Shown here: positions 54,506 through 64,000 of the stretch, piece by piece
How the letters are laid out: each line of letters starts with the position of its first letter
Numbering within the stretch: position 1 is the first letter of the stretch
Assembly (NCBI GenBank): GCA_048938005.1
Contig: JBHLMQ010000012.1
Span: 1-64,000 of the forward strand
Direction: 5' to 3'
DNA from: Promethearchaeota archaeon
Lineage (GTDB): Archaea > Asgardarchaeota > Lokiarchaeia > Sigyniarchaeales > SOKP01
DNA: 64,000 nt
Position numbers and translations under genes: made by a program
The notes under the pieces: generated by a model
Told to the model about the DNA's origin: nothing
The model's input: the letters and a program-made list of their open reading frames with translations, nothing else
Database searches by the model: none

Positions 54506-55072
54506 ATGGAAAATGAAATAATTTCAATTTTGGATGAAAATATCAAAATAAAAGAAGCTACAAAAGCTTTAACACCGACTATAGCAAAGATTTCTGAAAA
54601 AATAATAAATGCCTATAAGAATAGGAAAAAAGTTGTACTTTTCGGAAATGGAGGAAGTGCAGCTGATGCTCAACACATAGCAGCTGAGTTTGTAGGAAAA
54701 TTTTATCATGATCGTGATTCACTTCCTTCTTTAGCATTTCATACGAATACCTCTATTCTTACTGCAATAGCTAATGATTTTGGCTATGAATTTGTGTTTG
54801 AAAGACAAGTGTCCTCGTTTGTGGATGAAGGAGATGTAGTTATTGGAATTAGCACATCAGGTAATTCTCCAAACGTAATAAAAGGTTTGATAAAAGCTAA
54901 AGAAAAAGGAGCAATTACAGTAGGCTTCACTGGCGAAAAAAAAAGTAAAGTTGAAGAAATTGCTGATATCTGTCTAAAGATACCTTCATCCGATACTCCA
55001 AGAATTCAGGAAGGCCATATAACTGTTGGACATATTATTTGTTATTTAGTCGAAAAAGAATTTTTTGGATAA
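54506..55072 (+). CDS. gmhA: Sedoheptulose-7-phosphate isomerase
   Basis: GNGGSAADAQH, NDFG, STSGNS, RIQEGH. Confidence 0.95.
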   Translation: MENEIISILDENIKIKEATKALTPTIAKISEKIINAYKNRKKVVLFGNGGSAADAQHIAAEFVGKFYHDRDSLPSLAFHTNTSILTAIANDFGYEFVFERQVSSFVDEGDVVIGISTSGNSPNVIKGLIKAKEKGAITVGFTGEKKSKVEEIADICLKIPSSDTPRIQEGHITVGHIICYLVEKEFFG

Positions 55073-55718
55073 GCGACAATTTATGAAAAAAATCGCAATT
55101 TCTATTCATGCAATAGAAGATTTTACACTAAATATTATTAAGGGCCTAAAAGGTTTTGATTATATACATGTAGATGTCATGGATGGTAAATTTGTAAATA
55201 GCATTAATAATAATTTAAATGTTTTCCACCCTTTAAAAGAAACTTATAATACTCCAATAATTGCTCATTTAATGGTAATTAATCCATTTGATTATATTAA
55301 AAAAATTATTAAAAATATTGATATATTTTTATTTCATCTTGAAGTATTAAATAATATTCGGGCAATAATAGAAGAAATCAGAAATAGTAAAAAAAAGGTT
55401 GGTCTTGCTATAAATCCAGAGACAAAAACTTCTGAAATTATACCATATTTAAAAGAAATTGATCTTGTCTTGGTAATGAGTGTAAATCCTGGCTTGTCCG
55501 GTCAGGAATTCATTCCAAATTCTGTAAAAAAAGTAAATAAGTTGGCTGAATTTAAAAAACATTATAATTTTGTTATCGATGTTGATGGTGGGATTAATTT
55601 AATAAACGCAAAACTATTAAAAAATGCAGATATATTAACAAGCTCAAGCACTATTTTAAAAGCTAAGGATCCAAATAAAATACTTAAATTACTTAAAAAA
55701 TCTGGTGAAAATGACTAA
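55065..55718 (+). CDS. rpe: Ribulose-phosphate 3-epimerase (start may be ATG 55083)
   Basis: HVDVMDGKFV, AHLMV, MSVNPG, DVDGGI. Confidence 0.9.
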   Translation: MDKRQFMKKIAISIHAIEDFTLNIIKGLKGFDYIHVDVMDGKFVNSINNNLNVFHPLKETYNTPIIAHLMVINPFDYIKKIIKNIDIFLFHLEVLNNIRAIIEEIRNSKKKVGLAINPETKTSEIIPYLKEIDLVLVMSVNPGLSGQEFIPNSVKKVNKLAEFKKHYNFVIDVDGGINLINAKLLKNADILTSSSTILKAKDPNKILKLLKKSGEND

Positions 55719-56253
55719 AAAAAGGAAGGCTATTTTTTTAGATAGAGATGGTGTGATAAATAAAGAAGTTAATTATCTTTCCAAACCCAATGATTTTGAA
55801 TTTATTGAAGGATCAATTGACGCTTTAAAAATTCTGAAACAAAAAGGATACCTAATTATTGTTATTACTAATCAAGCTGGTATAGCAAAGGGATTTTTTA
55901 CAGAAGAGACCCTTGAATCTATTCACAGTAAAATGACAAGGATTTTAAAGCAAAATAATATAGAATTAGATGGTATTTATTATTGTCCCCACCATCCTGA
56001 ATTTACTGGTCCATGCGATTGTAGGAAACCAAAACCCGGTATGATTCTGAAAGCACAATTAAAGTATAATATTGATTTAAATAATTCTTATATGGTTGGA
56101 GATACATTGAATGATATTGAAACAGGCAAATCAGCGAGATGCAAAACTATTTTAGTTTTAACTGGTTATGGAAAGGAAGAACAGAAAAAAAAAAGCTCGA
56201 TAATACCAGACATGATATTTAAAAACTTAAAAGAATTTGCTATAAATATATAA
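55705..56253 (+). CDS. gmhB: Heptose-1,7-bisphosphate phosphatase
   Basis: FLDRDGVIN, TNQAGI, CPHHP..CDCRKPKPGM, VGD..ND. Confidence 0.93.
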   Translation: MKMTKKRKAIFLDRDGVINKEVNYLSKPNDFEFIEGSIDALKILKQKGYLIIVITNQAGIAKGFFTEETLESIHSKMTRILKQNNIELDGIYYCPHHPEFTGPCDCRKPKPGMILKAQLKYNIDLNNSYMVGDTLNDIETGKSARCKTILVLTGYGKEEQKKKSSIIPDMIFKNLKEFAINI

Positions 56254-56297
56254 AACTAATAATTATTATAATCATCAAAATGTAATAGTGAAGTAGT

Positions 56298-56951
56298 ATG
56301 AAATTTTTCATAGATACCGCTAATTTAGAACAAATAAAAGAAATGCAAGAACTAGGTATAATCGATGGAGTTACTACAAATCCTACTTTATTAGCAAAAG
56401 AAGGAGCTGAACCTATAGAACAATTAAGAAAAATATGTGAACTGGTTGATGGACCTGTAAGTGGAGAAGTGATAGGATTAACTACTGAAGAAATGGTGAA
56501 AGAAGCTCGTGAATTAGCCAAAATTGCTCCTAATATAGTTGTTAAGATTCCCTTTACTAAGGATGGGATTAAAGCAGTTAAAATACTTGAACCTGAGGGA
56601 ATAAAGACGAATGTTACACTCGTATTTTCACAGAATCAAATTTTAATTGCAGCAAAAGCAGGAGCTTCTTATATAAGTCCTTTTATAGGAAGATTAATGG
56701 ATAATGGCCAAAATGAAATTGATATGTTATGGGAATCAATGGATATAATCCGGGCATATGATTTTAAATCTGAAATAATAGTTGCTTCTGTTAGAAACAC
56801 TAGACATATTATTGAGGCTGCAAAGATGGGGGCGCATATTGCTACAATTCCTTTTTCTGTGCTTGAAAAAATGTTCAAACATCCAAATACAGATCAAGGG
56901 TTGAAAGCATTTCTCAAAGATTGGGAAAAATTACAAAGCGAATTAAAATAA
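56298..56951 (+). CDS. tal: Transaldolase (small, Fsa/TalC family)
   Basis: FIDTAN, GVTTNP, VVKIP, TNVTL, SPFIGR, ASVR. Confidence 0.93.
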
Positions 56952-56963
56952 CAATCTAATAAA

Positions 56964-57962
56964 ATGTCTCTTATTGATGAGATTTCCAAATGGAATAAAG
57001 AAAAAGTATTAATAATTGGAGATGCTTTAATAGATAAGTATATTTTCGGATATACCGATAAAATTTCTCCTGATGCACCAGTTCCAAATGTAAAAATAGA
57101 GAATAGTAATCTTTACATAGGTGCAATTGGATTAGTTTTACAATATATACAATCTTTAGGGGGAATTCCGGAAATTTGTACTATTATTGGTAGCGATTTT
57201 GAGGGAGATTTTTTTTTAAAAAAGGTTAAGGAGTTAAAATTAGATCCTTCAGGAATTCTCGTAGATGATAGTTTAAAAACACCTCAAATAACTCGAATAA
57301 AAGCAATGAATCAACATCTTTTACGTTTAGAAACTGATTATAATAGTGATATATCTCAACCTATTATAGACAAGTTTAAAGATCGCATACTAAATATGTC
57401 TCAAGATATTGGCGCAATACTAATTTTAGACTATGGTTTAGAAGGAATATTCAAGGATATATTTATTCAGAAATTATTACGTTTTTTAAAAGAAAACTAT
57501 AAAAACGCCCCTATTATTGTCCGTCCTACAAAATTCAATTACTATCTCTATGAAAATGTAGAATTAATTAAGATGAATCTTCAGAAAGCTTTAGATACAT
57601 TTTCAATCGATTGTTGCAATGAAACTAGTATAACAATTGCGGGAAAAAGAATTTTAAACTCTTCAAAATGTAATAATGTTCTACTGAATTATTTAGAATT
57701 AGAATCTTTTCTCTTTTCAAAAGAAAATGAAAAAGTAGAAAAATTTAGTCCAATTTTGCAACAACCTGTAAGAAGTTATGTAGCTGTTGGTAGTGTTATA
57801 ATGGCAGTACTGGGATTATCATTTGCTTCGGGAATTTCAGTTTTAAATGCAGTAAGAATTGCACTTTTTGCTGCTGCTTTTACGGCAACGCTTCCTCCTG
57901 TCGAATTTTATAAAATTGAGAAGCTTCATAATTATATTTTAACTAAAATGAATAAATTATAA
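56964..57962 (+). CDS. HldE/RfaE kinase-domain homolog (PfkB fold), degenerate
   Basis: VLIIGDALIDKY, ISPDAPVP, QHLLRLE, ILDY; anion-hole DVTGAGD replaced by SYVAVGS. Confidence 0.75.
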   Translation: MSLIDEISKWNKEKVLIIGDALIDKYIFGYTDKISPDAPVPNVKIENSNLYIGAIGLVLQYIQSLGGIPEICTIIGSDFEGDFFLKKVKELKLDPSGILVDDSLKTPQITRIKAMNQHLLRLETDYNSDISQPIIDKFKDRILNMSQDIGAILILDYGLEGIFKDIFIQKLLRFLKENYKNAPIIVRPTKFNYYLYENVELIKMNLQKALDTFSIDCCNETSITIAGKRILNSSKCNNVLLNYLELESFLFSKENEKVEKFSPILQQPVRSYVAVGSVIMAVLGLSFASGISVLNAVRIALFAAAFTATLPPVEFYKIEKLHNYILTKMNKL

Positions 57963-57983
57963 TTTACTCATTTAAATACTAGA

Positions 57984-58850
57984 ATGGAATTGTCTAAAGC
58001 TGATGAACAGAAAATCTTAATTGATATTCTGGATATCAAAAAAGATATTTTGATGATGATATATAAAGCCCAATCGGGTCATCCGGGAGGCTCATTATCG
58101 TGTGCTAATATCATATATCTCCTTTATAACTATATTATGAGAATAAATCCTGAAAATCCTACATGGGAAGAAAGAGATATATTTATCTTAAGTAAAGGAC
58201 ATGCTGCACCTGCTTTATATGCTGTCTTATCAAATTTTGGTTTTATAAATAGGGGGGAATTATTTACTTTAAGGCAATTTGGTTCTAACTTACAAGGCCA
58301 TCCTGTTAAAAATCCAGAATTCGGAATAGAAATATCTACTGGATCTTTAGGAATGGGATTATCAATCGGTGTTGGGTGTGCATTAGCTGCTAAATTAGAT
58401 TCTAAAAATAAATTAATTTATGTTTTATTAGGAGATGGAGAATTAAATGAAGGTGCTATATGGGAAGCAGCAATGTCAGCTAGTCATTATAAGTTAGATA
58501 ATTTAATAGCAATTGTAGACCGAAACGGGCTACAAATAGATGGATCTACAGAAGAGATAATGGCTTTAGAACCTTTAGCAGAAAAATGGAAAGCATTTGG
58601 TTGGGAAGTTATTGAAGTTGATGGTTCAAATCTAACAGAAATAATACATGGATTTGAAAGATTAAAAACTATAATTGGTAAACCTAAAGTAATCATATCT
58701 TATCTAATTAAAGGATCTGATGTATCATTTATGCAACATACTAAAAAATATCATGGACGAGCGCCAAACAAAGAGGAATATGAAATCGCGCTTAAAGAAC
58801 TTGAAGATATCAAGGCGGAATTAATAAGAGGTGATAAATCAAATGTCTGA
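57984..58850 (+). CDS. tktA: Transketolase, N-terminal (TPP-binding) subunit
   Basis: SGHPGGSLS, LSKGH, LQGHP, TGSLG, GDGELNEG. Confidence 0.93.
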   Translation: MELSKADEQKILIDILDIKKDILMMIYKAQSGHPGGSLSCANIIYLLYNYIMRINPENPTWEERDIFILSKGHAAPALYAVLSNFGFINRGELFTLRQFGSNLQGHPVKNPEFGIEISTGSLGMGLSIGVGCALAAKLDSKNKLIYVLLGDGELNEGAIWEAAMSASHYKLDNLIAIVDRNGLQIDGSTEEIMALEPLAEKWKAFGWEVIEVDGSNLTEIIHGFERLKTIIGKPKVIISYLIKGSDVSFMQHTKKYHGRAPNKEEYEIALKELEDIKAELIRGDKSNV

Positions 58851-59766
58851 ATTACCTCTTAGAGATACATTTGGAACTTTTTTAGTTGAAAAAGGTAAAA
58901 TATATAAAGATATGGTTGTTTTAGATGCTGATACGTCTTTTTCTACGAAAACCGTTAAATTTTCTAAAGCATTCCCCGATAAATTCTTTAATATGGGAAT
59001 TGCTGAACAAAATATGTTAGGAACAGCATTAGGTTTTGCAATCTCAGGAAAAATTCCTATAGTTAGTGGTTTTTCTATATTTACGACAGGGAGAGCATGG
59101 GAATTTATAAGATTTGCTTGCCATGATAATTTAAATGTAAAAATAGTAACTACGCATGGCGGATTTGTTGGAGAAGATGGAAGCACTCATAATGCTTTAG
59201 AAGATTTAAGCTTAATGGCATCTCTTCCAAATTTAAATGTTTTAATCCCTTCAGATAATATTGAATTACTTCAAATATTAGAATATTCTCTCAATCATAA
59301 TGGTCCTTTTTATATAAGGCTACCAAGAGGAGCTTTTCCTAAAATTCATAATCAAATTTATAAATTTTCTATTGGAGAACCTGATATAATTAAAGAAGGA
59401 GAAGATATTTGCTTGATTGGAGTTGGATATGGGAGTATTGTAGCATTAAAATCAGCACCGAAAATTGAAAAAAAACTTAAAATTTCTATTAAAGTAATTA
59501 ATTTTCCAAGTATTAAACCAATTGATAATGCATTATTATTAAAAGAGATTAAATCAGTAAAAGGAATTATTATAATAGAGGAGCATAATATTTACTGTGG
59601 CTTTGGAAGTATAATTGCAAGGATCATCTCTGAGAATTATCCAAAAATCATGAAATTTATTGGAATCAATAATTCATTCGGTCAATCAGGTAAGAGAGAA
59701 ATTTTATTAGACTCATATGGTTTAAATGAAAAAAAAATAATTGAGCAAATAAAAAAAATTATTTAA
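58843..59766 (+). CDS. tktB: Transketolase, C-terminal subunit
   Basis: GIAEQNM, GEDGSTH, YIRL, EEH; ATG downstream of GAGGTGA (track starts at GTG 58831). Confidence 0.92.
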   Translation: MSELPLRDTFGTFLVEKGKIYKDMVVLDADTSFSTKTVKFSKAFPDKFFNMGIAEQNMLGTALGFAISGKIPIVSGFSIFTTGRAWEFIRFACHDNLNVKIVTTHGGFVGEDGSTHNALEDLSLMASLPNLNVLIPSDNIELLQILEYSLNHNGPFYIRLPRGAFPKIHNQIYKFSIGEPDIIKEGEDICLIGVGYGSIVALKSAPKIEKKLKISIKVINFPSIKPIDNALLLKEIKSVKGIIIIEEHNIYCGFGSIIARIISENYPKIMKFIGINNSFGQSGKREILLDSYGLNEKKIIEQIKKII

Positions 59767-59798: not shown

Positions 59799-60332
59799 TC
59801 AGTTTGGTAGGTATCCCTTTGAATCTAATGCGTCTAATATTATTGCTTTACATTCTTCTAAAGTTTGTTTATCAGTTTCGACAACAATATCTACATTATC
59901 CGGCTCTTCAAAGGGATGATTAATTCCAGTAAAATCCTTTATTTCTCCTGCTCTTGCTTTGGCATACATCCCTTTTACATCACGTTTCTCACACTCTTCA
60001 AGACTACATTTTACATAAACTAGAATATAATTCCCGATTTCTTTCCGAGAGTACGCTCTAATTTTATTGTATGGTGATACAAAAGAAGCAAGAACAACAA
60101 CTCCATTCCGTGTTAGAAGCTTGGCTACAAATGTAACTCTTTCAATATTCATATTTCTGTCCTCTTCACTAAATCCCAAATCTTTTGTTAGACTTTTTCT
60201 AACAATATCCCCATCAAGTCTTTCTACTTTCATTCCTTTCTCCTTTAAAGTTTCTGCAACTGCATCTGCTAATACTGATTTCCCAGAACAAGGGAGTCCT
60301 GTAAACCATAATGTAAATCCTTTATGTTCCAT
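59799..60332 (-). CDS. cysC: Adenylyl-sulfate (APS) kinase
   Basis: WFTGLPCSGKS, LDGD, LGFSEEDR, RDVKGMY, FTGI..PFE. Confidence 0.96.
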   Translation of the reverse strand: MEHKGFTLWFTGLPCSGKSVLADAVAETLKEKGMKVERLDGDIVRKSLTKDLGFSEEDRNMNIERVTFVAKLLTRNGVVVLASFVSPYNKIRAYSRKEIGNYILVYVKCSLEECEKRDVKGMYAKARAGEIKDFTGINHPFEEPDNVDIVVETDKQTLEECKAIILDALDSKGYLPN

Positions 60333-60351: not shown

Positions 60352-61740
60352 TTAAAAATTTATTATATTTCCTTCCATATCATTAGGAATATTTACTCCT
60401 AGAATTTTCAGAGATGTTGGAGCAATATCTAAAATGCTTTTAATTCCTAAATTTTTTCCTATCTTTTTTATAGGATCATAAATAACATAAATCCCAAACC
60501 AATCGTGTACGGCATCATCAGGACCAGTATCATTTTCGTCTAAATACATTGAGTCATACCCAACTGTCCCTGCGGATCTCCAATTTAGATCATCAAAATA
60601 AACAAATAAATCTGGTGGGTCTCCCCTTATAACTTTAAATAATTCCTCAGGTTTAAAGATTTTTGTGTTCATTGAATTACCATTATTATCTTTTATGGAT
60701 TTTAGTTTTTCAATGATTTGATCTCTTACTTCCTCATACTTTTCTTGTTTAATAATCCCATGAGGCTCTCTTCCTTCGATATTAAGAAATATTCTAGCAT
60801 AATAACCACCCCACCCCCATGCATAAGTATTATCCCAATCAACATCAGCATCTGCTAATCTTGTTTTAGGTTTTGGTTTGGTTTTAAATTTTAGTAATCC
60901 TAAATTTTCAAGTGCCATATTGACACACACTAATCCTTTCATTGCTTTAGCACCATGGTCTGACACAATCATCATAATTGTATTTTCATCCACTAAATCC
61001 AATATCTCTCCAATTTTTTTATCTAAATATTGATAATATTTTCTCATTTCTCCTTCAAATTTATTTCCCGGTTCATATTTATGGTGACTTTTATCATAGA
61101 ATTTCCAAAATGCATGGTGGAATCTATCTAAACCAATAATTACAAAATTAAAATAATCCCACTCCTTATTTCGCATAATATATTTAACTGTTTTTAATTG
61201 AACTTTTGTCATTTCGTAAATCTCTTTCAATAAAACATTTTTATCTTCCACTCTAAAGTTAACATCTATGATATAATCTCCTACATTTTCTTTAATTTCT
61301 TCTTTTAATTCTCGAGGATATGTATAATCTGAGGTTATATCGGGAGTAATGAAACCAGAAACTAGACACCCATTAATTGGTTGAACAGGATAGGTTGGGG
61401 GAATTCCTACTATGCAAGATCTTAAACCATTTCTCGAAATTATGTCCCATACTTTTGGATCTTTAATATTATAAGACGTAGCAATCCAAAAATCATCATA
61501 TGAATTTCCTTTTCTATGTCTAAATCCATATAATCCTAATGTTCCAGCTTTCTTACCAGTAGACATCACCATCCAAGCAGGAATGGTAATTGGTGGATCA
61601 CATGATCTCAATTTTCCATAAACACCATATTCTACCATCTTTTTTATGTTAGGGCAATCATCTAAGAAATCTTCAAACAATGTTTTGGGTGTTGCACAAT
61701 CTAATCCTATGATAACTAATTTTTTTTTATTTTTATTCAT
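60352..61740 (-). CDS. AlkP-superfamily (NPP/type I phosphodiesterase-like) enzyme
   Basis: IIGLD, PPITIPAW (Thr nucleophile), DRFHH, SDHG, HD..G, DIAPT. Confidence 0.88.
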   Translation of the reverse strand: MNKNKKKLVIIGLDCATPKTLFEDFLDDCPNIKKMVEYGVYGKLRSCDPPITIPAWMVMSTGKKAGTLGLYGFRHRKGNSYDDFWIATSYNIKDPKVWDIISRNGLRSCIVGIPPTYPVQPINGCLVSGFITPDITSDYTYPRELKEEIKENVGDYIIDVNFRVEDKNVLLKEIYEMTKVQLKTVKYIMRNKEWDYFNFVIIGLDRFHHAFWKFYDKSHHKYEPGNKFEGEMRKYYQYLDKKIGEILDLVDENTIMMIVSDHGAKAMKGLVCVNMALENLGLLKFKTKPKPKTRLADADVDWDNTYAWGWGGYYARIFLNIEGREPHGIIKQEKYEEVRDQIIEKLKSIKDNNGNSMNTKIFKPEELFKVIRGDPPDLFVYFDDLNWRSAGTVGYDSMYLDENDTGPDDAVHDWFGIYVIYDPIKKIGKNLGIKSILDIAPTSLKILGVNIPNDMEGNIINF

Positions 61741-61784: not shown

Positions 61785-62933
61785 TTAGGAAACAAATGGA
61801 TTTTGATACTCTAGAATAACTTCTGCTACCTCTGGACGCATAACTTCGGGATCTGGGGCTTTTCCTGATTGTAATGTATTACGAATTTCCCTTCCAGCAA
61901 AGTAATTCTGCATCTCTGGAGGATGAGGACAAATTTTATCATTAACTATTGAATTACATTTGCTGCATTTTGAAAATGATCTGAATTTTATTGGTTCTAT
62001 TCCTAAATCTGGAAAATAATCAAAAATCTCATGAGCATCATATGGTCCATAATAATTACCTACACCTGCATGATCTCTGCCTATAATTATGTGATCACAT
62101 CCAAAGTTTTTTCTTGCTATTGCATGAAAAATTGCCTCTTTAGGTCCCGCATATCTCATTTCAGTTTCAAATGTACTTAAAACTACCCTATCTTTTGGAT
62201 AGTATTCTTTTATCAGAACTTGATATGTACGTATAATAACCTCATCTAAAAAATCCCCAATTTTCTTCTTACCAATTACAGGATTTATAAAAAGCCCATC
62301 TACATAGGTTAAACCTGCTTTTTGTACATATTCATGGCCTAAATGAGGTGGATTTCTTGTTTGAAAAGCTACAACTTTGTTCCACTTTTTTTCTTTAAAA
62401 AGAACTCTTGTTTCTATTGGTTTAAGGTCCAATTCCGGAAAAACTGATTTAGGTTCATTTATTAAAAAAATCTCACCTCCAACTAGTTTATCTTTCATTT
62501 TGAAAACTGAACTAACACCCGGATGGTTATTATCAAGTGTGCCATACACTTTTTCTGCTAATTCCTTTTTATCATAATCATATATCTCTTCAACTGCCAT
62601 CAGAGCAATTATGGTTTCTTCTGAATCAACCAACAGCACTCTGTCATCAGTGCTAAAAGATCTCGCCTTTTCTTCAGTAATATCCAACACTATAGGAATT
62701 GGCCATGCTAAATTGTTCTCCAAATACATATGTTCTAAAACATATTTATAATCATTCTTATTCATAAATCCTTCCAAAGGGCTGAAGACTCCATGTGCAA
62801 TATTTTTAATCACCTTTACAGTTGGTTGATTTACTGATATTTTTTCAAATTCATGTATTTCATCTAAAATTCTATTTTTTTCAATTTTTGGTAATTCCTT
62901 ATTTATTAAACTACCACCATGAGGCTGAATCAT
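61785..62933 (-). CDS. sat: Sulfate adenylyltransferase
   Basis: PHGG, FSPLEGFM, FQTRNPPHLGH, MRYAGPKEA, GRDHAG. Confidence 0.96.
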   Translation of the reverse strand: MIQPHGGSLINKELPKIEKNRILDEIHEFEKISVNQPTVKVIKNIAHGVFSPLEGFMNKNDYKYVLEHMYLENNLAWPIPIVLDITEEKARSFSTDDRVLLVDSEETIIALMAVEEIYDYDKKELAEKVYGTLDNNHPGVSSVFKMKDKLVGGEIFLINEPKSVFPELDLKPIETRVLFKEKKWNKVVAFQTRNPPHLGHEYVQKAGLTYVDGLFINPVIGKKKIGDFLDEVIIRTYQVLIKEYYPKDRVVLSTFETEMRYAGPKEAIFHAIARKNFGCDHIIIGRDHAGVGNYYGPYDAHEIFDYFPDLGIEPIKFRSFSKCSKCNSIVNDKICPHPPEMQNYFAGREIRNTLQSGKAPDPEVMRPEVAEVILEYQNPFVS

Positions 62934-62987: not shown

Positions 62988-63227
62988 TCAATCGATATAA
63001 CCTAAATCTCTAAGGCGTTGTTTAACTTTTTCTTCTTCTTCCTTAGTAAATGCTTGCTTGGATCGCTCATCTTCCTCTATGGAAGATATTACTTGTCTAA
63101 GTACATATGTCACATAACTAGAAACAGATGAAAACCCAGTTCCTTTCATACGTTGCTTAATCTTTTCCACAAGGGGTTTAGGTATTGAAACTGTAGTGTA
63201 TTCAACTTTTAGGTCATCTTCTGACAT
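62988..63227 (-). CDS. CopG/ribbon-helix-helix protein with C-terminal EEEKVKQRLRDLGY tail
   Basis: YTTVSIPKPLVEKIK..GFSSVSSYVTYVLR RHH pattern followed by a sulfatase-type tail. Confidence 0.82.
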   Translation of the reverse strand: MSEDDLKVEYTTVSIPKPLVEKIKQRMKGTGFSSVSSYVTYVLRQVISSIEEDERSKQAFTKEEEEKVKQRLRDLGYID

Positions 63228-63764
63228 AAGCTTTACCTAAAATTTATTTAAATTATTATAATTAAATTTAATGGTATATAATTAAAAATAATTAAAAAAG
63301 CTTTTTAAAAATTCTGCTTTGGATTTTACATCTTAAATTAAACTTATTTGGTATTTTTTATTTATTTTATTTAATTATTATTAGTGTTATAATTCATTTT
63401 GGAATTAAACTAAAAATTTTGTACGAAAAGCTCTTTAGCATTACAGCTTGCTAGTTTAGGATATAAAATCACAGGAATTGATCAAAAAAAAGGTTAAAGA
63501 TTTTCTTTCAGAGAAGTAATTTTCTAATAAAGTTTCTTTAAATTTTATCTATAAATTTAGAAATTAAGATTCTGATATTTCTGTTGATTTTTTGTCCTTC
63601 AATATTATAATCAAAAGCTCCAAATAATGTAATTAATAAATTTAAAGCGATTAAATAATCTATTTAACGTAATCTGTTTTAAAATGATAATTTTTTCATC
63701 AATTAGTATTTTAAAGTATTTAATATTCATTAAAATGTTATTTAGATATCAAAATTTCTAAAAG

Positions 63765-64000
63765 ATGAGTAAAACATTGAATCTTAAAAGCATTAAAACA
63801 CTTTTAAAAAAGATAAAAAACCCATTAACTTTTCGGAATGCTCTTCTATATAAATTCTGTTCATTTTTATACCGTAAAAACAACGGTTTCTATATTTTTA
63901 ATGAATCATGGGACAATTTAATCATCTTGGATGCATGTAGATATGATGTTTTTAAAGAGCAATATTTAAAAAGAAATATGAAAGGGGAGCTATTTAAAAA
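63765..64000 (+). CDS. Partial (3'-truncated) sulfatase-like AlkP-core protein
   Basis: ATG 63765 open to the window end: ...FNESWDNLIILDACRYDVF..., the N-terminal metal-binding motif of archaeal sulfatase-like proteins in glycosylation loci. Not in the ORF track. Confidence 0.75.
   Translation, partial: MSKTLNLKSIKTLLKKIKNPLTFRNALLYKFCSFLYRKNNGFYIFNESWDNLIILDACRYDVFKEQYLKRNMKGELFK

Follow-up and report, generated by a model that had tools for sequence, protein, structure and literature searches.

Within the window, i.e., the whole stretch of 64,000 nucleotides from a Promethearchaeota archaeon analyzed here, four genes follow one another on the minus strand. The first encodes a 79-aa protein that joins a probable ribbon-helix-helix (RHH) part to a C-terminal tail (62988..63227 in the ORF list, stop codon at 62988-62990). 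It is followed by sat, the gene of a 382-aa sulfate adenylyltransferase (61785..62933; PF01747, E 1.8e-84; PUA_2; NF003166, E 1.4e-148), by the gene of a 462-aa AlkP-superfamily enzyme, the predicted partner of the tail (60352..61740; PF01663, E 8.3e-44), and by cysC, the gene of a 177-aa adenylyl-sulfate kinase (59799..60332; PF01583, E 2.6e-60; TIGR00455, E 1.9e-68). This RHH-sat-AlkP-cysC operon makes PAPS. Both observations from which the original prediction started were found in the ORF translations, since the 79-aa protein ends in ...EEEEKVKQRLRDLGYID, also given as FTKEEEEKVKQRLRDLGYID, and the PF01663 enzyme encoded two genes downstream, which has no such tail, terminates in ...DMEGNIINF. 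All of the evidence presented here is computational. The operon adjoins putative surface-glycan genes, through which its PAPS would feed glycan sulfation.

The content and order of these genes, as assigned with Pfam and NCBIfam, are those of the Thermococcales-type cluster, and a copG-sat-NPP-cysC cluster has indeed already been published (PMC8268124). In the available portions of that article, pych_17520-17560 of P. yayanosii encode copG, ATP sulfurylase, a DHH pAp phosphatase, NPP and APS kinase; of pych_17520, a putative copG, it is stated that it "potentially regulates the pathway," the DHH pAp phosphatase was characterized, the type I phosphodiesterase/NPP was speculated to degrade PPi, and a TauE/DUF81 transporter neighbors the cluster (PMC8268124). 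The same cluster is described in T. onnurineus (TON_1704-1707), where TON_1705 is termed a pyrophosphatase with reference to Lee et al., 2009 (PMC4463584, available portions); the pyrophosphatase assignment of the Thermococcales enzyme rests on statements in these two articles. As far as the available text goes, copG, ATP sulfurylase, the NPP-family enzyme and APS kinase thus come in the same order in Thermococcales and in the window, whereas the DHH pAp phosphatase of the former has no counterpart in the Asgard operon. The first gene is merely a putative copG in the available portions of both articles, which mention no operator, tail or enzyme contact, and a literature search covering journals free of subscription found no paper on the operator, tail or enzyme contact of this regulator.

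The N-terminal part of the small protein (residues ~9-50; 63078..63203, minus strand) is probably a DNA-binding domain of the ribbon-helix-helix type, in line with weak matches to the NikR and RHH_1 profiles and with the helices of the AF2 model. The window protein had no Pfam or NCBIfam match above cut-off; the best hint was the RHH domain of NikR (E 0.022, weak), the family profile weakly matched the same domain in the PDB at positions 9-51 (E 0.044), and RHH_1 was matched by 7 of 90 relatives at E ≤ 0.01. The AF2 monomer model, computed with 90 relatives, reached a mean pLDDT of 85.6, and of 94 for residues 11-50. It comprises an extended segment up to residue 16, helices at residues 17-27 and 35-58, and a tail helix at residues 62-75, with a dip in confidence across the acidic linker ahead of the latter. 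That no strand was assigned is expected, as the partner chain is absent from a monomer model, and a Foldseek search of this model against the PDB returned nothing at E ≤ 0.001.

The family is large and well conserved. A homology search returned 784 proteins at E ≤ 0.01, and the 120 listed, from Promethearchaeota, Loki-, Thor-, Odin-, Hod- and Hermodarchaeota, were 87-100% identical to the window protein and labeled CopG-family regulators by their sources. Among 1.84 billion representatives, 941 relatives were found at E ≤ 0.001, most of them 70-80 aa long and matched over their full length, and members of this wider family also occurred in Thermofilum, a DPANN lineage and a bacterial MAG. Two relatives (P0161 and P0123) carry two tails or two entire units in tandem, and the RHH-tail gene is present as a single copy in the genome of the window. 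The RHH protein exceeds the enzymes encoded with it in conservation: across Asgard-type loci its mean identity to the window was 87.6%, while sat stood at 76.7%, AlkP at 75.3% and cysC at 84.7%; across non-Asgard loci it was 73.3% for the RHH protein vs. 53.2 and 55.0% for the enzymes.

The gene is preceded by a putative operator. Four tandem 10-bp units (63259..63293, minus strand) lie 36-66 nt upstream of the ATG, with the cores AATTA, AATTA, CATTA and AATTA, and the first unit is abutted by the TATA-like box TTTTTTAA (63292..63299, minus strand; 72 nt upstream of the ATG), which probably acts as the TATA box, judging from the alignment of orthologous upstream regions. In the window, ATTA-N6-ATTA-N6-ATTA is found three times vs. 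0.34 expected, and two of these three matches fall at the operator. The arrangement is conserved: at least three units with a 10-bp period were present within 150 nt upstream of the gene in 47 of 62 Asgard-type loci and in 4 of 14 others, while control windows from these loci contained three units in 29 of 3742 and 1 of 942 cases, respectively, and shuffled sequences gave three units in a mean of 2.8 Asgard-type and 0.07 other loci. Two exact units were found upstream in 55/62 Asgard-type and 10/14 other loci, and in the GC-richer Thermoplasmata-type loci the units, with a consensus of about (A/C)ATTAAATNT, come directly after the TATA box. A scan for promoters and terminators of bacterial type, a method ill-suited to an archaeon, gave no enrichment.

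The same array points to a probable second target. Arrays of four units occur only three times in the 3.72-Mb genome, one of them being the RHH promoter, and the second precedes a TauE/SafE gene (PF01925, E 1.3e-16) by 190 nt, ahead of a conserved small upstream ORF. Among TauE orthologues of the same taxonomic family, 24 of 30 loci showed an array in the 300 nt before the gene, compared with 6 of 280 control windows and with 2.5% of 300-nt windows genome-wide. The third array (C90:4572), which stands by an Arf-like GTPase gene and is devoid of AATTA cores, was taken as a chance occurrence; some operator-like arrays do arise by chance in AT-rich Asgard DNA. To judge from coordinates, G210 and G282 have TauE immediately beside the RHH operon, and in G147 this position is taken by a more distant TauE homologue (37% identity). 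The 10-bp tandem-repeat putative operator beside a TATA-like box and its link with TauE are new here. This recurrence of the array at TauE genes supports a genuine DNA-binding autoregulator, and the conservation of the putative operator, at the level of sequence, lends new support to the 79-aa protein acting as a DNA-binding regulator. It could otherwise be proposed that this protein is no transcription factor but a minor subunit, structural or regulatory, of the enzymes that make PAPS, and that the repeats belong to another factor. Its conservation, unusual for a regulator (87.6% vs. 75-85% for the enzymes), and its failure to reach any RHH family cut-off would agree with such a role; we nevertheless consider it very improbable, as the N-terminal part matches the NikR and RHH_1 profiles weakly but consistently and as operator arrays accompany the gene from phylum to phylum and are seen again at TauE promoters.

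The association of the RHH gene with sulfate activation was followed by tblastn over 81 loci, i.e., 80 from MAGs of Asgard, Thermoplasmata, Theionarchaea and Thermococci plus that of the window. Directly downstream of the RHH gene, sat was found in 80 of the 81; the sole exception (L080) has CysD (PF01507) and CysN at this place, so that a sulfate adenylyltransferase of either form lies directly 3' of the RHH gene in 81/81 loci. Matches to cysC were obtained in 72 loci and to AlkP in 56. Of the nine loci lacking a cysC match, seven have less than 2.1 kb of downstream DNA; among the 25 lacking an AlkP match, five have less than 2 kb downstream and the other 20 have 2.5-6 kb. In these 20, cysC comes after sat, in some cases with a DHH phosphoesterase (PF01368) between the two; the DHH-type arrangement accounts for 13 loci. 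Thermoplasmata-type loci differ from the window in having the DHH enzyme in place of AlkP. The tail of the small protein is fully conserved in these ~20 operons without an AlkP gene (at least 2.5 kb of downstream DNA), which implies that docking on AlkP cannot be its entire function, and tail-less PF01663 genes were found elsewhere in 5/5 tested genomes with an AlkP-less operon. Over these 81 loci, the expected tie of RHH-LGY genes to sat, cysC and AlkP held for sulfate adenylyltransferase but not for AlkP.

The tail itself spans residues 58-79 (QAFTKEEEEKVKQRLRDLGYID; 62991..63056, minus strand), and in the AF2 model it forms a helix (62-75) followed by LGYID. The ending RLRxLGY[IL][DE] was retained in all 81 orthologues read from genome loci, so that the tail is no accidental ending and the Tyr, whose conservation mattered to the original prediction, is invariant. 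Among the best 150 representatives of the wider family (50%-identity set), LGY occurred within the last 10 residues in 125, and the other 25 comprise, among others, some entries that are truncated or frame-shifted and a few that have MGY instead. The most conserved columns of alignment A1 were L72, L75, G76 and Y77, although the invariance of LGY in A1 is partly by construction, its rows having been chosen for LGY. That L72, L75 and G76 are as invariant as the Tyr is the pattern expected of a packing motif. Two known motifs were considered for this tail and set aside. The ESCRT-III MIM1 motif, (D/E)xxLxxRLxxL(K/R), resembles it loosely, and this identity was dropped because the RHH-tail family is common outside Asgard and tied to sulfate genes; the HbYX proteasome-docking motif was rejected because the Tyr has no fixed penultimate position.

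The tail is not restricted to the small protein. A word search with residues 40-79 against longer proteins gave just 17 candidates and no enzyme; the family profile, for its part, matched large ORFs in further Asgard genomes by the tail alone. A tail-only profile (A3) matched in 160 of 400 Asgard genomes, and among the 150 matches listed, 12 fell in ORFs of more than 150 aa, all 12 of which belong to the AlkP superfamily (11 PF01663-like enzymes and one sulfatase; four confirmed by Pfam, the rest assigned by BLAST to those four or by reading). The full-length profile A1 applied to 251 genomes of a second phylum, that around a Thermoplasmata genome, added three tail-bearing PF01663-like enzymes, for a total of 15 AlkP-superfamily enzymes in related archaeal genomes. 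The original prediction's view of such a helix as a C-terminal appendage of AlkP/sulfatase-type proteins was thus borne out, and the tail is carried by AlkP-type enzymes in fused form or else by the small RHH protein. By contrast, the operon AlkP was tail-less in 51/51 copies having a C-terminus, four of the 55 members of its cluster being cut by contig ends and left out of this count, and the genome of the window contains no other AlkP-type ORF or enzyme with the tail. This fused-or-separate distribution favors the earlier proposal that the tail is supplied in trans to the operon enzyme. That proposal does not, however, account for the tail in AlkP-less operons, nor for its presence at the end of a CysC (L145, 202 aa, PF01583) and of CysD proteins (L146, L150, L151 and L080; PF01507 confirmed for L146 and L080), which indicates that it is not merely the missing end of the operon AlkP.

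Such a spread of hosts raises the question of a more general role. Since the tail is found in AlkP-less operons and on CysC and CysD, and since docking on AlkP is a prediction, a role as a pathway tag is a live alternative, albeit one that we regard as rather unlikely. The regulator, CysC, CysD, AlkP-type enzymes and sulfatases would then bind a common partner or one another, in a complex that channels APS and removes PPi and of which the regulator would be but one client. In addition to the tailed CysC (L145) and CysD (L146, L150, L151 and L080), this possibility draws on the RHH-tail paralogues found beside sulfotransferase genes with no AlkP, and on the second phylum, where ~11 of 17 sampled lower-scoring RHH-tail loci had sulfate-pathway neighbors (sat, CysDN, cysC, sulfotransferases PF00685/PF13469 or PF01663 being counted), none being seen at L148, L153, L154, L156 and L157. 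It is, however, at odds with the location of the tail-bearing PF01663 paralogues away from sat and cysC: none of six tail-bearing PF01663/sulfatase genes (loci L119-L123) adjoins an RHH, sat or cysC gene. Other Asgard families possess a second RHH-tail paralogue alongside the operon, and two genomes (L124 and L127) pair a third RHH-tail gene with an additional tail-less PF01663 paralogue.

The candidate partner of the tail retains the catalytic-type residues of its superfamily. D14, T/S52, D205, H209, D261, H262 and H412 were kept in 16/16 aligned members of the PF01663 enzyme; we take D14, T52, D205, H209, D261, H262 and H412 to be the metal ligands and nucleophile, as assigned from NPP enzymes. 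The complex between the window AlkP (alignment A2, 41 rows) and residues 45-79 of the small protein (A1) was predicted with ipSAE values of 0.89, 0.87 and 0.88 in three runs, compared with 0.00-0.02 for the controls (best of three, 0.02), and the runs shared at least 91% of contacts, with a partner pLDDT of ~70. In calibration, 116 of 157 solved complexes attained the mark used for docking, as did 2 of 215 mismatched pairs, counts that apply approximately here, where the chains came with custom unpaired alignments. The AlkP profile matched no sequence in the PDB at E ≤ 0.001, and the tail has no solved relative by sequence either, which makes it unlikely that the network remembered a solved complex; the predicted docking may reflect no more than what it learned from fused homologues. 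In the AF2 model of a tail-bearing PF01663 paralogue, the tail helix (556-568) had a pLDDT of ~79 and the linker ~54, values which do not decide on self-docking. The docking in the enzyme that had been proposed is thus what the controlled prediction yields (0.88 vs. 0.02 for the best control).

In this predicted complex, K57, A59, F60, E64, E65, K67-K69 and R71-D79 of the tail contact enzyme residues 73-74, 86, 88-90, 117-118, 130-134, 137, 159, 161-163 and 294-296, together with 310-312 (W310-G312), 390-392, 403-406 and 408 (N403-D408). The core of the groove (F73, I86, Y117-P118 and F130-P133) is largely retained in tail-bearing paralogues, while R74, F162-R163, W310-G312, A390-T392 and N403-D408 distinguish the operon clade. 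F73-R74 come 21-22 residues after the putative nucleophile T52, and G406, P407, D408, D409, V411 and H412 are invariant in the 41 operon-type AlkPs of A2. Contacts at F73-R74 and D408, near T52 and His412, suggest that the interface would adjoin the presumed metal site. Tyr77, nevertheless, is predicted to pair with F73, and none of D14, T52, D205, H209, D261, H262 and H412 is among the named docking contacts: contact of the Tyr with a catalytic-type residue, as had been envisaged at the metal site, is not predicted.

These contacts bear directly on the idea that Tyr77 is chemically modified. The LGY tail would then be a mobile substrate arm, in trans on the regulator or fused to paralogous enzymes as in DltX/MBOAT. 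PAPS, APS or ATP would serve the AlkP-fold enzyme as donor of the sulfuryl, phosphoryl or adenylyl group that it places on the Tyr of this arm, which would act as a DltX-like shuttle or as a read-out of PAPS that alters DNA binding, the modification state of the regulator reporting the PAPS pool to the promoter. The invariance of the Tyr in 81/81 orthologues and the predicted position of the tail beside catalytic motifs are compatible with this view. No observation supports a sulfo-Tyr relay intermediate, Tyr77 being predicted to pair with F73 off the catalytic residues, and the equal invariance of L72, L75 and G76, as in a packing motif, also argues against a carrier; we know of no precedent for a carrier fused to a DNA-binding domain. 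In addition, the Thermococcales counterpart is given as a pyrophosphatase in the available part of PMC4463584. The DltX parallel, for its part, is valid in one respect, that a C-terminal motif with an invariant Tyr occurs on a separate small protein or fused to an enzyme (PMC12148441, available portions). In the same source, DltX is a membrane microprotein with an FxYxxF motif that works with MBOAT and SGNH enzymes. Other DltX features are not found here: the 79-aa protein is soluble, highly charged and without a hydrophobic span, it has a probable DNA-binding domain, its motif is LGY[ILM][DE], the operon genes are sat, PF01663 and cysC with none for MBOAT or SGNH, and neither an acyl nor a sulfuryl intermediate is indicated. 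Modification of Tyr77, whether for transfer or for sensing, therefore appears improbable.

The tail might also serve the repressor itself, in which case docking would be an artefact. It could mediate self-association, the tail on enzymes then being a general oligomerisation peg, or act as an auto-inhibitory helix that would aid cooperative binding. NikR combines an RHH with a whole metal-binding domain and Mnt carries a C-terminal tetramerisation helix; the 79-aa protein would be similar in having an N-terminal RHH, a C-terminal sensing or oligomerising element and repeated operator sites, whereas the add-on of NikR and Mnt is not known to be shared with enzymes of the regulated pathway. Tandem 10-bp operator units do call for cooperative binding, the monomer model shows the tail as an amphipathic helix that is well formed, tails or units are duplicated in P0161 and P0123, and the tail is retained where the operon has no AlkP gene. 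A generic peg is, on the other hand, hard to reconcile with the finding that 15/15 large ORFs from the tail search are of the AlkP superfamily, and the docking score of 0.88 vs. 0.00-0.02 for the controls also speaks against this view. We thus hold a tail serving the repressor itself to be unlikely, though a possibility to be reckoned with.

Taken with these alternatives, the reading that we tentatively favor, at somewhat less than an even chance, is that of an RHH repressor that regulates the PAPS operon to which it belongs, and probably the TauE operon too, and whose tail docks on the AlkP-fold enzyme. The RHH protein would control its own RHH-sat-AlkP-cysC operon and probably also that of the TauE-family anion transporter, by means of a row of RHH dimers set on the tandem 10-bp repeats next to the TATA-like box. 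Its DNA-binding part would be joined by an acidic linker to the 22-residue tail. Through this peptide it would dock on the AlkP-fold (PF01663) enzyme encoded in the operon, with the hydrophobic face of the tail (F60, V68, L72, L75, Y77 and I78) lodged in a conserved groove near the catalytic motifs. How active the repressor is would then depend on how much of the enzyme is present or on its ligand state, with PPi, APS, PAPS or pAp as candidate signals, and the docked tail might also inhibit the AlkP-fold enzyme. Repression and the direction of the switch are, like the signal, what we infer from this arrangement.

In mode of action, though not by homology, the nearest parallel is the pairing of GlnR/TnrA and glutamine synthetase. 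In these Firmicutes regulators, as described in the available portions of PMC9249791, a flexible linker leads to a C-terminal tail that binds the active-site region of glutamine synthetase, which couples transcription to the state of this enzyme. The similarity would extend to a regulator encoded first in the operon of the enzyme and built of a DNA-binding domain, a linker and a short C-terminal tail (PMC9249791, available portions). The folds are, however, unrelated and the tail motifs different, with a MerR-type winged helix, glutamine synthetase and the tail motif xG(E/D)xSRF on one side (PMC9249791, available portions), and an RHH, an AlkP-fold phosphodiesterase and RLxxLGY on the other. 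The tail described here is, moreover, also fused to paralogous enzymes, and its binding to the enzyme is a prediction.

If this docking is true, archaea from Asgard to Thermoplasmata control activated sulfate through an enzyme that holds the tail of its repressor, which would constitute a second, independently evolved case of the GlnR/glutamine synthetase principle. With the putative operator and its TauE link, a regulon would for the first time be defined for a transcription factor of this RHH family in Asgard. All the parts concerned are small enough for direct experiment, the protein having 79 aa, the tail peptide 22 residues and the operator 35 bp. Being common to the regulator, AlkP-type enzymes, sulfatases, CysC and CysD, the tail also offers a compact and testable marker of sulfation pathways.

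The 79-aa ribbon-helix-helix (RHH) gene (62988..63227, minus strand) shares one intergenic region with a divergent 300-aa ORF on the plus strand, which occupies 63765-64000 of the window and runs on to about 64667 of the contig (L088:2275-3174 in locus numbering). It carries an N-terminal ...LIILDACRYD... motif and was matched weakly by the sulfatase model PF00884 (E 1.7e-4, below the cut-off). The product, small and without a tail, is AlkP-superfamily-like. On the other side of the operon, the plus-strand genes at 54506-59766, judged by eye from their translations only, resemble a heptose/pentose-phosphate set, which would comprise a SIS-type isomerase, a ribulose-phosphate epimerase, a HAD-type phosphatase, a transaldolase-like protein, a sugar kinase and a split transketolase. 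The three nearest to the operon (gene clusters 4, 5 and 7) were found beside it again in 22-28 of 80 loci.

The 10-bp repeats of the RHH promoter also occur elsewhere in the genome, in an array before a TauE/SafE gene (contig C78:19394-20408, loci L162 and L164). Upstream of this gene lies a short ORF (about 55 aa; M..WEIGKEARELDEK...) whose C-terminal half is hydrophobic; it was kept in most of the 30 family loci.

Seven variants of the family were noted (P0161, P0123, P0135, P0171, P0183, P0204 and P0246). The tail is doubled in tandem in P0161, two entire RHH-tail units make up P0123, and 200-aa forms among these variants are extended at the N-terminus by a further RHH-like part and also contain a middle domain. 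Within the window's genome, the sole other plausible ORF ending near LGY encodes a 70-aa RHH-like protein (...SRSEAIRTALRDFLHNEYENLKLLGYFEEGS; contig C8, frame offset 52649, plus strand), and no match to it was returned when the genome was searched with the window protein. In another genome, a strong tail-only match (G228:C31:70120-70179, E 2e-12) falls in an open frame of just 20 aa, possibly what is left of a gene or a disrupted copy.

RHH-tail genes were also found with small sulfotransferases (190-215 aa, PF00685/PF13469) at five loci of other genomes (L155, L158, L159, L160 and L161), where the sulfotransferase gene lies directly 3' of the RHH-tail gene, the copy of L160 being placed between sat and cysC.

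The window CysC (59799-60332, minus strand) ends in ...ILDALDSKGYLPN, a faint echo of the RHH tail. Clearer versions terminate the CysC of two other loci, namely ...KLRELGYIR in L126 and the full tail ...EEKIKERLESLGYL in L145.

At four further loci, again from other genomes (L146, L150, L151 and L080), the RHH-tail gene is followed by CysD and CysN. The RHH-tail proteins are 113-131 aa long in the first three, that of L146 including two RHH-like stretches according to Pfam, and 69 aa in L080; a PF01663 homologue was detected by BLAST in L151, and a weak match in L080. CysD ends in ...MQKLR(A/S)LGYM at all four. These loci constitute a second operon type, in which the adenylyltransferase subunit bears the tail.
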